NCBI GenBank assembly: GCA_045634565.1
Contig: JAZRAM010000030.1
Location: forward strand, 1 to 34,289
Source: Bacilli bacterium
Lineage (GTDB): Bacteria > Bacillota_I > Bacilli_A > RF39 > UBA660
Reading direction: 5' to 3'
DNA: 34,289 nt
This document shows positions 31,665-33,752 of the stretch, in pieces (the stretch's first letter is position 1; each line of letters opens with the position of its first letter). The translations under genes and the position numbers were made by a program. The notes under the pieces were generated by a model that was not told the DNA's origin, did no database searches, and was given only the letters and a program-made list of their open reading frames with translations.

Positions 31665-33752
31665 ATGAAACGTAGAGTTAGATTAAATAAAAATGAGTTA
31701 TATGGTTTAATTAATGAATGTGTAAAAGGTGTGTTATTGCAAGAATATGATGTACATAGGCGTAATGGACAGCTTACGACACATTTTTTACCACAATCGA
31801 GTGGTGGTAAATATATTAATTATGATAATGGTACAGAAGAAGATAGTGGTATAAATATTGATAATCGTACCTATATGGGTAAAGATAAAGGGAAAGTTAA
31901 AATAAAACCATCTGCTTTATTTAAATATCAGTTATTTAATTATTTATATAATAACTATGAGAAAACATACCCATATGAACAAGAAATAGGTATAGTTTTA
32001 AAAAAAATATTACAAAGATTAAATACTAATACAGGGAAAAAGGTTACATTACAAGACCTACAGCAATTGAAGCAAGAATTAGTAACGTTATGTCAATCAG
32101 CTTTAGATACTATTTTATCAGACAGTAACATTCAAGTTGACCCTTCAGATAGAATAAAATTTTTTAATAATCAAGATAATATTATACAGTTAAGTATGAT
32201 ATTAAGTAAAAAATTAAAAAATAAAGATGTTATTTTGTATTATATAAATGATGAAATGAAATTAGGTAGTTTATATGATAATTATGAAAATATGTATAAT
32301 GAGTATGAACGTAATAATGTATCAGAGAAAGACAGGTTGAATTATTATAAATTAAAGTTACCTGGTACTAATGTTGATGTAATATCATTATATAGTTTTG
32401 ATAGTTTTGCTGGTACTGAGCTTATTAAAGCTAATGCGATTAGTGTAGCTAATAAAGACATGAAAGGTCGTTATGGTGAAGGACCTAATAATAGAGTTAG
32501 TTCTACATTTTCTGGTACACAAACAGATAGTCCGATGGATGCATTTAATTTTGAGTTTGATAAAACTGAGGATGGTGGATTTAACAGTGATGTTAATAGT
32601 ATAAGTCAAGGTATTGAATCTGGTAGTGCACAGCATTTCATTGAATATTCTATGAAGCATGGTAAACAAGTTTTAGCTGCTAATAATTTTACACCTAACT
32701 TTATGATATGTGTACCTAGTACATCTAGTTTTAATGAAAATTATATAAAGAAATTTTCTAGTTATATAAGTGGATGTAAGAGTTACTATGCTTTTATGAA
32801 AAAGAATTGGTTAAGTTACCAATTAACGGATAGTGATATGAACAAAATTCGAGAACATATTGAGTATATAAAATATCAATATGGTGATAGTGGTTGGGAA
32901 GATAGTGAAAAAGGTATTCAAGACTTAATTGAGAGAGGTATTTGTAATAGTTTCTTGTATATTATTAGTAAACAAATTAAAAATGTATTTAATGAAGAAT
33001 TAAATCAGATAAGTCCTAGTGATTTAAATACTATACAATCATATAGTTTTTTTATGTTGTTAAAACAACATAATAATATTGGTGCATTAGTACAAGGTTC
33101 TATACCAACAGAAGAAACACTTCAAAAAAAAATTAAGACTAATTATAATCTTACCAAGAAAAATCCAAATCTTCTTGCTCATAATTTAATACAATATATT
33201 TATAGTAAAGTTACTAATAGTACGCTTAATAATAAAAATACTTCATATAATGTGTATGATAAGAAATTTAATACAATTGTAGCAAATTGTTATAAAGAAT
33301 TAGAACAGTACATTCCTGGAAAAGGTAAAAAAGCTAGAGCTTTACCTATTACAATTAAGCAAAATGGATTTAAGGACAGTGATGTACAGATGACAAGTTT
33401 AGTACCTAGTGGTAATACAGGAGGTGCTAATCAACAATTAAATGGTAGAGAGATAAGACCTTTAATGGTAAGTGTATATTTAGTTGACCGTGAAGCTTAT
33501 GAATTAACGGCAGATGGACACCGTTTAATTGATGATTTGAAAAATTTTACTACACCATTAAATGAATCTACAAAAGTTGAGATGGCTCGTCAGAAAATTT
33601 TGGTTTTTGATGATGATATGGATACTGGAGCTAGTTTAAAACTTTGCGTTAGTACTTTACTAAATATTATAAAACAGAATAAAATTCAAGGTACAGATAT
33701 AAAATGTATGACTGTATTTAACCATCTCCAATTTAATCAAAGAACTTCTTAG
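31665..33752 (+). CDS. large protein with C-terminal type I phosphoribosyltransferase (PRPP-binding) motif
   Basis: 695 aa. KILVFDDDMDTGASL fits the PRPP-binding signature (4 hydrophobic-DD-x-x-DTG-x-S/T-L). FMICVPSTSSFN resembles the ComF-type first strand. The rest is unrecognised. Confidence 0.8.
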   Translation: MKRRVRLNKNELYGLINECVKGVLLQEYDVHRRNGQLTTHFLPQSSGGKYINYDNGTEEDSGINIDNRTYMGKDKGKVKIKPSALFKYQLFNYLYNNYEKTYPYEQEIGIVLKKILQRLNTNTGKKVTLQDLQQLKQELVTLCQSALDTILSDSNIQVDPSDRIKFFNNQDNIIQLSMILSKKLKNKDVILYYINDEMKLGSLYDNYENMYNEYERNNVSEKDRLNYYKLKLPGTNVDVISLYSFDSFAGTELIKANAISVANKDMKGRYGEGPNNRVSSTFSGTQTDSPMDAFNFEFDKTEDGGFNSDVNSISQGIESGSAQHFIEYSMKHGKQVLAANNFTPNFMICVPSTSSFNENYIKKFSSYISGCKSYYAFMKKNWLSYQLTDSDMNKIREHIEYIKYQYGDSGWEDSEKGIQDLIERGICNSFLYIISKQIKNVFNEELNQISPSDLNTIQSYSFFMLLKQHNNIGALVQGSIPTEETLQKKIKTNYNLTKKNPNLLAHNLIQYIYSKVTNSTLNNKNTSYNVYDKKFNTIVANCYKELEQYIPGKGKKARALPITIKQNGFKDSDVQMTSLVPSGNTGGANQQLNGREIRPLMVSVYLVDREAYELTADGHRLIDDLKNFTTPLNESTKVEMARQKILVFDDDMDTGASLKLCVSTLLNIIKQNKIQGTDIKCMTVFNHLQFNQRTS

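Follow-up and report, generated by a model that had tools for sequence, protein, structure and literature searches.

The window analysed in this work is the whole 34,289-nucleotide (nt) stretch of contig JAZRAM010000030.1 (assembly GCA_045634565.1), and our subject is the gene located at positions 31665..33752 on its plus strand, which starts with ATG and encodes a protein of 695 amino acids (aa) (listing of open reading frames (ORFs); stop codon included). The homology of this protein and its relatives to the phosphoribosyltransferase (PRT) superfamily is well supported by the analyses described below, and we regard it as very probable. The genes that encode them form a real, conserved and previously undescribed family that is specific to phages, viz. 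the jumbo phages of the gut and rumen. We propose that they represent a phage-only branch of the type I PRT enzymes (PRTases), whose members would bind phosphoribosyl pyrophosphate (PRPP) and phosphoribosylate an acceptor, and we place the chances of this proposal, in which catalysis and role are what we infer, at about even. An earlier note on this DNA, which was made from the sequence alone, had described the gene as the sole long ORF of the window and had placed it at these same coordinates on the plus strand; both points are borne out, and the next longest ORF encodes only 372 aa.

The PRPP-loop signature of the type I PRTases consists of four hydrophobic residues and two acidic residues followed by x-x-[DN]-[ST]-G-x-[ST] and then by a helix. 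This pattern is present near the C-terminus of the protein in ILVFDDDMDTGAS, which is part of KILVFDDDMDTGASLKL (residues 643–659) and departs from the signature at D651. The second motif of interest, FMICVPSTSSFN (residues 346–357; FMICVPSTSSFNENY if followed to residue 360), is found 297 residues upstream of the first, and both motifs are invariant or nearly so among relatives of 15–45% identity. In the family alignment, D649, D651, and G655 of the PRPP loop are nearly invariant, whereas position 650 is occupied by D or E, 654 by T or S and 657 by S or T; P351, S352, S354, and N357 of the upstream motif are likewise invariant or nearly so. Three motif blocks, P[DN][FY]I[IV]xxPSSSxFNxxY, R-P-[YFL]-L-x3-Y-[VI]-[VI] and N-x-K-F-L-I-F-D-E-D-x-N-S-G-A-T-L-K-L, are conserved in the family down to sequence identities of 15–20%, and the first two of them are always separated by 165–235 residues. 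A regular expression for the PRPP loop matched all 20 family members in the fetched loci and none of the 554 other ORFs, and it was also found in 12 of 100,000 shuffles of the protein.

Searches against domain libraries were performed with native sequences and with spliced cores, in which residues 318–388 of the protein were joined to residues 594–695 and the relatives were treated likewise (alignment A3, insert removed). The Pfam family PF00156 (Pribosyltran), which has a gathering threshold of 26.3 bits, was matched at the C-terminal motif by 7 of the 10 native relatives (E 0.001–0.08; 12.8–18.8 bits) and by 29 of the 42 spliced cores, where the best match had an E-value of 2.9e-5 and a score of 23.9 bits, which is under the cut-off. 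In several spliced cores this match crossed both halves (residues 5–143 against profile positions 8–125), in accordance with the split fold, interrupted by a large insertion, that the earlier note had suggested. With a family profile (A1), a purine PRTase was matched over the motif at an E-value of only 0.16, and when the A3 profile was compared with the PDB, 18 of the 20 best matches were type I PRTases or PRPP synthetases, all of them at the same motif (best E 0.021). Additionally, in the PADLOC library spliced cores matched PsyrT (12 members, best E 2.4e-6), ShosT (11 members, 4.2e-6) and the retron PRTase_III-A (3.3e-4), and the NCBIfam matches of these cores were to OPRT-like, HGPRTase and comF families. 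Thus PF00156 was the recurrent top family, and PRT families recurred at the DDDMDTG motif, where the earlier note had recognized a type I PRPP loop and where it had named a lack of any PRT-like signal as fatal to its view.

The relationship to the ComF family was examined by aligning the A3 profile to YhgH of Escherichia coli using hhalign. The alignment covered 102 columns and paired PDFIIxaPSS..FN..YC..LS.KL with LPDRIVSVPLWQRRHWRRGFNQSDLLCQPLSRWL of YhgH and FLIFDEDxNSGATL with HMVIVDDVVTTGSTV; the FN of PSTSSFN is thereby placed opposite the FN of the ComF motif RGFNQ. Its score of 24.4 compares with 11.4±1.9 (maximum 18.2) in 200 shuffles. Both halves of the core also scored above all of their shuffles when they were aligned individually, the N-terminal half at 20.7 (shuffles 9.8±1.9, maximum 17.6), with PNFMICVP paired with PDRIVSVP, and the C-terminal half at 22.7 (shuffles 11.1±1.7, maximum 15.8). 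The two halves match strand 1 and the PRPP loop of YhgH in colinear order, and none of 150 shuffles was as good. A ComF-like first strand and loop, some 290 residues upstream of the PRPP loop, had been predicted before these comparisons, and the alignment of the N-terminal half agrees with this prediction.

A structure was modelled for residues 190–695 with AlphaFold2 (AF2) from 61 sequences, and the model has a mean predicted local distance difference test score (pLDDT) of 82.8 and a predicted template modelling score of 0.83. The order of elements in this model is a helix (residues 321–339), strand b1 (346–349, MICV), a loop of the type that binds pyrophosphate (PPi), a helix (356–367), strand b2 (372–374), about eight helices (389–549), a return segment, strand b3, a loop, a helix (656–671) and strand b4. 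Among the top 50 Foldseek matches of the model, the ShosT-PRPP complex was at rank 2 and HpComF from H. pylori at rank 5, and OPRT and HGPRT entries were also present; the E-values of the PRT entries were at least 0.3, and their enrichment was counted as weak support only. A first AF2 model (full length, 13 sequences, pLDDT 58) was discarded, as the Foldseek matches obtained with it (Bcl-2-like and VirB4) were without meaning and included no PRT entries; in that model helices were seen at residues 82–216, and residues 1–80 were of low confidence.

The layout of the protein that is suggested by these results is summarized in Table 1, together with the features that flank the gene. Judged from sequence, residues 321–388 and 641–695 would constitute the two halves of a PRT core, and between them, in the place taken by the flexible loop in other PRTases (loop names after PMC11961720), lie a helical insert of about 170 aa and a return segment. 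The statement in the earlier note that the N-terminal 600 residues are of no known kind was therefore too strong, as the PRT core begins near residue 321. An insert (165–235 aa) is present in every member of the family and contains no invariant residue, and its profile (A8) gave no meaningful match in the PDB. In the return segment, R598 is invariant in all 62 members. The ComFC-like and invasive-element PRTases have as a common signature a conserved Arg in the loop that follows strand 2 (PMC5512222), and R598, by its position, is a candidate for the equivalent of the Arg of the ComFC type. Within residues 190–320 the conserved positions are Y227, P233, T235, F296, and the invariant F248 and K255, and over the N-terminal 320 residues the positions that are invariant throughout the family are D66, R68, Y227, T235, F248, K255, and F296. 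The profile of these 320 residues (A6) detected neither a homolog nor a hydrolase in the PDB; residues 190–320 are possibly the acceptor-binding or "hood" part of the protein. The PDB matches that were returned for A6 and A8 (dephospho-CoA kinase at 0.19 and S100-A9 at 0.01) were rejected as chance matches to low-complexity helical sequence.

Table 1. Features of the 695-aa protein and of the DNA flanking its gene (coordinates are those of the window).
Feature	Position	Strand	Details and basis
Hairpin followed by a U-run	31506..31560	+	Fold -21.8 kcal/mol, z -2.7; closes the upstream plus-strand unit
AT-rich 5' region of the gene	31561..31664	+	Without early-type promoter motif and without Shine-Dalgarno sequence
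Residues 1–189, N-terminal region	31665..32231	+	Family-wide D66-x-R68, then a helical stretch varying among subfamilies; alignments A2 and A6
Residues 190–320, conserved family-specific domain with beta strands	32232..32624	+	Alignments; AF2 pLDDT 80–90 over most of it
Residues 321–388, putative N-terminal half of PRT core	32625..32828	+	AF2 secondary structure, hhalign, PF00156
PSTSSFN (residues 351–357), candidate PPi-binding loop	32715..32735	+	Family alignment; translation checked
Residues 389–560, all-helical insertion at the PRT flexible-loop position	32829..33344	+	AF2, family alignment
Residues 561–640, conserved return segment	33345..33584	+	DVQMTSL (573–579); R598 within RPLMVSVYLV
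Residues 641–695, putative C-terminal half of PRT core	33585..33749	+	b3 643–652, PRPP loop, helix 656–671, b4 677–687
ILVFDDDMDTGAS (residues 645–657), predicted PRPP-binding loop	33597..33635	+	Family alignment; translation checked
Hairpin of 14 bp between the gene and the convergent ORF 33816–34193 (minus strand)	33775..33808	.	Fold -21.6 kcal/mol, z -6.2

A word-indexed protein search identified 12 relatives of the protein with 33–95% identity, two of which are labelled "hypoxanthine phosphoribosyltransferase" by the Joint Genome Institute, and an exhaustive profile search of 1.84 billion representatives retrieved 72 proteins at E<1e-3. Most of the relatives from the profile search are of 570–620 aa and are 15–20% identical to the protein, and all are metagenomic; when the homolog search was repeated with the A4 profile, just five further close relatives, all without annotation, were added. 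No match was found among 50,697 phage records by either tblastn or megablast, and no published description of the family was found in the literature that was searched. The carriers of the family are phage contigs, and the 13 loci from IMG/VR are on contigs of 32–373 kb, most of them of at least 90 kb. One relative (P0011, locus L001) is encoded about 5–9 kb from genes for a T4-type gp23 capsid protein and an S77 prohead protease and is also found on a 350-kb contig, and another (P0088) comes from a contig of 312 kb that also carries genes for NAD-ligase and HSP70. The gene was located in sequencing runs from gut and bovine-gut metagenomes. A search of 185,579 species genomes gave a single match, on a 2.4-kb contig of a rumen metagenome-assembled genome (MAG). 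This only "cellular" match (L026; CADBQV010000208.1) was binned into an Erysipelotrichaceae MAG and is probably a mis-binned phage fragment, which might provide a hint of the host. The gene is under purifying selection: in comparison with its 95%-identical relative in locus L006, the ratio of nonsynonymous to synonymous differences (pN/pS) is 0.34, no amino acid changes are present in residues 190–368 and 631–669, and the differences are mostly at residues 106–189.

Some members of the family are fused to other domains, all of which were identified above their cut-offs in the case of the C-terminal HAD_2 phosphatase that is found in P0046 (E 3e-16), P0055 (1e-9) and an 800-aa protein of L021/L023 (2e-10). 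In P0037 the fusion partner is an N-terminal P-loop kinase of the Zeta_toxin/AAA_33 type (E 8e-12). A pairing of a PRTase with a HAD protein has been proposed to form a nucleoside-like metabolite module in Ter systems (PMC7824862). As these fusion partners are domains for small-molecule phosphoryl transfer, they point to an enzymatic, small-molecule role.

With regard to neighboring genes, a family-B DNA polymerase is located head-to-head with the gene, 142–541 bp away, in L015, L021/23, and L024, which belong to one subclade, and it is a few kb off in L017, L025, and L004. The polymerase that adjoins the PRT-like gene in L015 (4514–8911, minus strand) carries an intein with a LAGLIDADG domain. 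Further neighbors include NrdD with an ATP-cone, thymidylate synthase (ThyA), adenylosuccinate synthetase, UvrD, a 5'-3' exonuclease, SAM synthetase, and methyltransferases. The co-occurrence with DNA-modification genes, for which the earlier note had recommended a check, showed no consistent pattern in these neighborhoods. DUF723-type proteins are found near the PRT-like gene at varying distances and in varying orientations (L004 8039–9892, L009 12824–13978, L001 15150–16802, and L013 3425–5110), and their appearance is that of mobile genes of the endonuclease type and not of functional partners. On the 312-kb phage contig, about 4 kb separate the PRT-like gene from a gene for a Cas12f1-like/TnpB-type nuclease (L009 4256–6527, minus strand), whose neighbor is a serine resolvase.

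A number of observations weigh against the reading of these proteins as PRPP-dependent transferases. The native protein itself did not match PF00156, and its searches against Pfam, PHROGs and PDB sequences gave only noise (LEF-10, ABC transporter); moreover, no match to a PRT library, either native or spliced, reached a curated cut-off, and the statistical signal is mainly in the region of about 40 residues around the PRPP loop. PSSSxFN does not resemble the PPi loop of the salvage PRTases, and the position of D651 is presumably hydrophobic in canonical PRPP loops (PROSITE pattern PS00103). The agreement of the AF2 model with a PRT core, which in type I PRTases is a Rossmann-like parallel sheet of five strands flanked by helices, is at the level of element order. 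Of the structural check that the earlier note had advised, the expected element order and the PRT entries in the top 50 were obtained but not a significant global match: no match at E<0.06 was found by Foldseek in the PDB or BFVD, which is to be expected because the core is split by about 250 residues. Fusions are seen in just 4 of about 70 representatives, and all-against-all clustering of neighbors revealed no partner gene for the family as a whole, only polB in one subclade and the mobile DUF723-type genes. Lastly, ComFC, PurR, and PyrR are PRT domains with intact PRPP loops that can serve in binding or regulation and not in classic catalysis.

In the mechanism that we propose, the PRPP loop (D649, D650, T654-G655-x-S657) and the serine-rich loop (S352–S354, N357) would bind Mg-PRPP or a 5-phosphoribosyl compound, and R598 and the helical lid would close over the site. 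The phosphoribosyl group would then be moved to a postulated acceptor, which the N-terminal domain would hold together with the lid, with release of PPi and formation of a nucleotide-like ribose-5-phosphate adduct, which in the HAD-fused relatives may be trimmed to the riboside. As for its role in replication, we infer either a phage-directed remodelling of the nucleotide/PRPP pool or the synthesis of an unusual nucleotide.

Among the alternatives, the one that fares best, although we consider it unlikely on present analysis, is that of a non-catalytic PRT-like module, which would bind PRPP, a nucleotide or single-stranded nucleic acid and could act as a sensor, a regulator or an accessory in DNA handling at the replisome. 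Such modules have precedents in ComFC, which acts in DNA uptake, and in the regulators PurR, PyrR, and GfcR. The location of the gene beside a DNA polymerase in one subclade is consistent with this possibility, as are the NCBIfam matches, which include OPRT-like/GfcR-type regulators as well as comF, and the large helical insert, which looks like an interaction surface because it lacks any invariant residue. The nearest alignable features are also ComF-like (PDxIVxVP, FN, and the Arg after strand 2; PMC5512222), but the entire set of residues that would contact PRPP and PPi is invariant over a very deep divergence, with an additional invariant Asp, and this argues for catalysis. Further, the fusions involve a HAD_2 phosphatase and a Zeta-like kinase, not DNA-binding or helicase domains, and the family has no zinc finger (0/62), nor was a ComFA-like helicase partner present in the gene lists of the loci examined.

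It is improbable, in our assessment, that the protein is a takeover enzyme that would consume or divert PRPP and so stop host nucleotide synthesis or blunt the PRTase-based defences of the host. Phages with NrdD, ThyA and AdSS-type genes of their own need nucleotides, and the draining of PRPP would be costly to them. The best library E-values are those to PsyrT and ShosT, and ShosT and the Eco11 PRTase are known to act via PRPP binding and depletion (PMC11961720; PMC12746101); however, neither a ShosT-like pyrophosphatase (PPase) domain nor, in the loci examined, a DprA-like partner was seen here, and the presence of a lid and of an N-terminal domain of 320 aa suggests that the acceptor is a specific one. 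The organization of the gene as a unit of its own beside the early-gene array would be in keeping with a takeover function. A transferase directed at a macromolecule or precursor, which would use PRPP to add ribose-5-phosphate to a base of DNA or RNA or to make a non-canonical nucleotide for the phage genome, with the lid and N-terminal domain recognizing the acceptor and, in some phages, the fused HAD trimming the product to a riboside, is in our view a long shot; if true, it would introduce a new type of chemistry, located beside the phage DNA polymerase, by which phages modify their genomes or counter host defences. The least credible explanation is that the PRT resemblance reflects convergence upon a short motif in an otherwise unrelated fold, for although all scores are under curated cut-offs, Foldseek gave no significant match and some 40 residues supply the bulk of the score, the correspondence extends over two separate blocks whose order and secondary structure are as expected, and four independent libraries (Pfam, PDB, PADLOC, and NCBIfam) return PRT families as their top recurrent match.

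If the proteins are PRTases, as we propose, their closest counterparts are ComF, ShosT/PsyrT and the "invasive-element" PRTases, yet the family lies outside the named ComF, ShosT/PsyrT and retron families. With ComF/ComFC/GntX(YhgH) (TIGR00201) they have in common strand 1 and its loop (PNFMICVP~PDRIVSVP, and FN of RGFNQ), the PRPP loop and, as a candidate by position, the Arg after strand 2. However, the N-terminal zinc finger of ComF is absent, as none of 62 members contains two CxxC motifs and the eight Cys of the 695-aa protein are scattered, and in place of a short flexible loop and a competence context there are a helical insert of 165–235 aa, an unrelated N-terminus of 320 aa and a phage context. 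No ComFA-like helicase partner was present in the gene lists of the loci examined, and the cut-off of TIGR00201 was not reached by any core (7 of 42 at E<0.1, best 0.0084). ShosT/PsyrT (PDB 8zvc) gave the best library E-values (2e-6 to 4e-6) and, as noted, the high Foldseek rank of ShosT-PRPP, and the flexible loop of ShosT is unusually long (PMC11961720). In contrast to them, the present family lacks the PPase-like N-terminal domain, has a far larger insert and is encoded by jumbo phages of a lytic type and not by bacteria; additionally, a DprA-like antitoxin neighbor was found neither in the gene lists of the loci examined nor among the top 25 neighbor families. The type III-A retron PRTase (Retron-Eco11) is similar in its PRPP loop (PADLOC PRTase_III-A down to 3.3e-4), but it possesses Gx14PNNxP, whereas PNNxP is present in 0 of 62 members of our family, which also lack the winged-helix C-terminus; neither a reverse transcriptase nor a noncoding RNA was found nearby in the family neighborhoods. 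Membership in the retron and ShosT groups was accordingly rejected on their defining features.

The remaining systems are less closely comparable. The Ter-system PRTases (PRTase_2, PF15609) resemble the family in that 5 of the 42 cores match PRTase_2 and in that the pairing of PRTase with HAD recurs as a fusion in three relatives, but Ter genes are lacking, the PRTase_2 score is below its cut-off and the architecture is different. The salvage PRTases (HGPRT, APRT, OPRT, and UPRT) and PRPP synthetase, which provide the top PDB matches, exhibit the same acidic pair, T/S-G-x-T/S and beta-loop-helix-beta arrangement; those enzymes are proteins of 150–250 aa in which the flexible loop is short and the hood small, whereas the protein studied here is of 695 aa, with a core that appears split, the invariant D651 and a serine-rich PPi loop. 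Lastly, the PRTases of phage and plasmid polyvalent proteins (Iyer et al., 2017, PMC5512222) form a distinct group of enigmatic role, with a conserved Arg that is common with ComFC; these are fused to MuF and other domains in elements of Proteobacteria and Verrucomicrobia (PMC5512222), and on this description our family would differ from them.

The window has a G+C content of 25% and contains about 37 short minus-strand genes up to approximately 30.3 kb, where a strand switch occurs. The bipartite motif TTGTGAA-N14-22-GGTTWTAT is present in 36 copies versus 0 expected, 35 of which are on the minus strand (6224–30272), and this promoter-like motif, in the form TTGTGAA-N14-22-TGGTT(A/T)TAT, precedes nearly every short minus-strand gene. 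This series looks like an array of early-gene promoters in which the -10-like element is extended. A conserved hairpin, AAAAAACCTCCAAAC-TTTTTATCG-TTTGGAGG, recurs about 10 times between the minus-strand genes (e.g., 10989–11020, 17955–17985, and 27148–27180), and it is probably a repeated terminator that is paired with the promoter array. None of the 36 motif copies is near the gene for the PRT-like protein, which had already been placed outside the array. The plus-strand unit upstream of this gene, which comprises ORFs 30393–30953 and 31035–31298, ends at the first hairpin of Table 1, and the second hairpin, whose stability was not equalled in any of 200 shuffles, is likely a bidirectional terminator. 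As these two hairpins flank the gene, it is a self-contained transcription unit that adjoins the early-gene array. A promoter scan of its 5' region yielded sigma-70-like matches only at 31623–31650, at a frequency no higher than in shuffles.

A C-rich island (CCCCTCCCC / GGGGTG repeats) is present upstream of the gene at approximately 31296–31420 and folds to -51 kcal/mol (z -3.7); it had no match in Rfam. The earlier note had remarked that the gene follows a GC-rich island, and the island is indeed real and upstream of it. However, it is not tied to the homologs: it is retained, at 96% identity, in L006 only, which holds the closest relative, and is absent upstream of the more distant homologs; in L001, L004, and L007 the upstream gene stops 35–110 bp before the homolog. 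As the island is confined to the 95%-identical relative, its linkage to the gene family was rejected.

Some other features of the window are also of interest. A tRNA gene at 4390–4464 (minus strand; Rfam 44.9 bits) was assigned by ARAGORN an undetermined identity with a four-base "atat" anticodon, which reflects either an unusual anticodon loop or a mis-call. Four paralogous ORFs (1427–2011, 3220–3771, 3783–4331, and 17247–17882, all minus strand) consist of tandem repeats of 69 nt (23 aa), and relatives of this repeat-protein family are located directly downstream of the PRT-like gene in L001 (12338–13866). A Shine-Dalgarno-like motif was detected upstream of 4 of the 41 window ORFs of at least 100 aa, and many of them carry ATAAAGAGAT or TATAAGATT before the ATG. 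Translation initiation in Bacteroidota is commonly independent of the Shine-Dalgarno sequence, and the scarcity of such motifs suggests a host of this kind, such as Bacteroidota. Of the ORFs 24769–25884 and 26013–26975 (both minus strand), one contains an HNH endonuclease domain (phrog_6050 and others) and its neighbor exhibits weak similarity to a DNA methyltransferase PHROG.

The PRT-fold proteins ShosT, PsyrT and the type III-A retron PRTase are effectors of phage defence on the bacterial side, which deplete or require PRPP, and the PRTases of the ComFC type that act in DNA uptake remain enigmatic. The family described here would be a phage-side member of the PRTase superfamily, which goes undetected at the thresholds of Pfam, PHROGs and NCBIfam. 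Its architecture, with a helical lid of about 170 aa that splits the core, an N-terminal domain of 320 aa and an invariant third Asp, was not described in the literature that was searched. The fold in use would be a known one, and what is new is the phage-only distribution, the split core and the N-terminal domain. Once the acceptor is defined, annotation pipelines would also have a model for the roughly 70 sequence clusters at present called "hypothetical". The HAD and kinase fusions point to real chemistry, and the identity of the acceptor would tell whether the giant phages that carry these genes make an unusual nucleotide, manipulate the PRPP pool or counter PRTase-based immunity.

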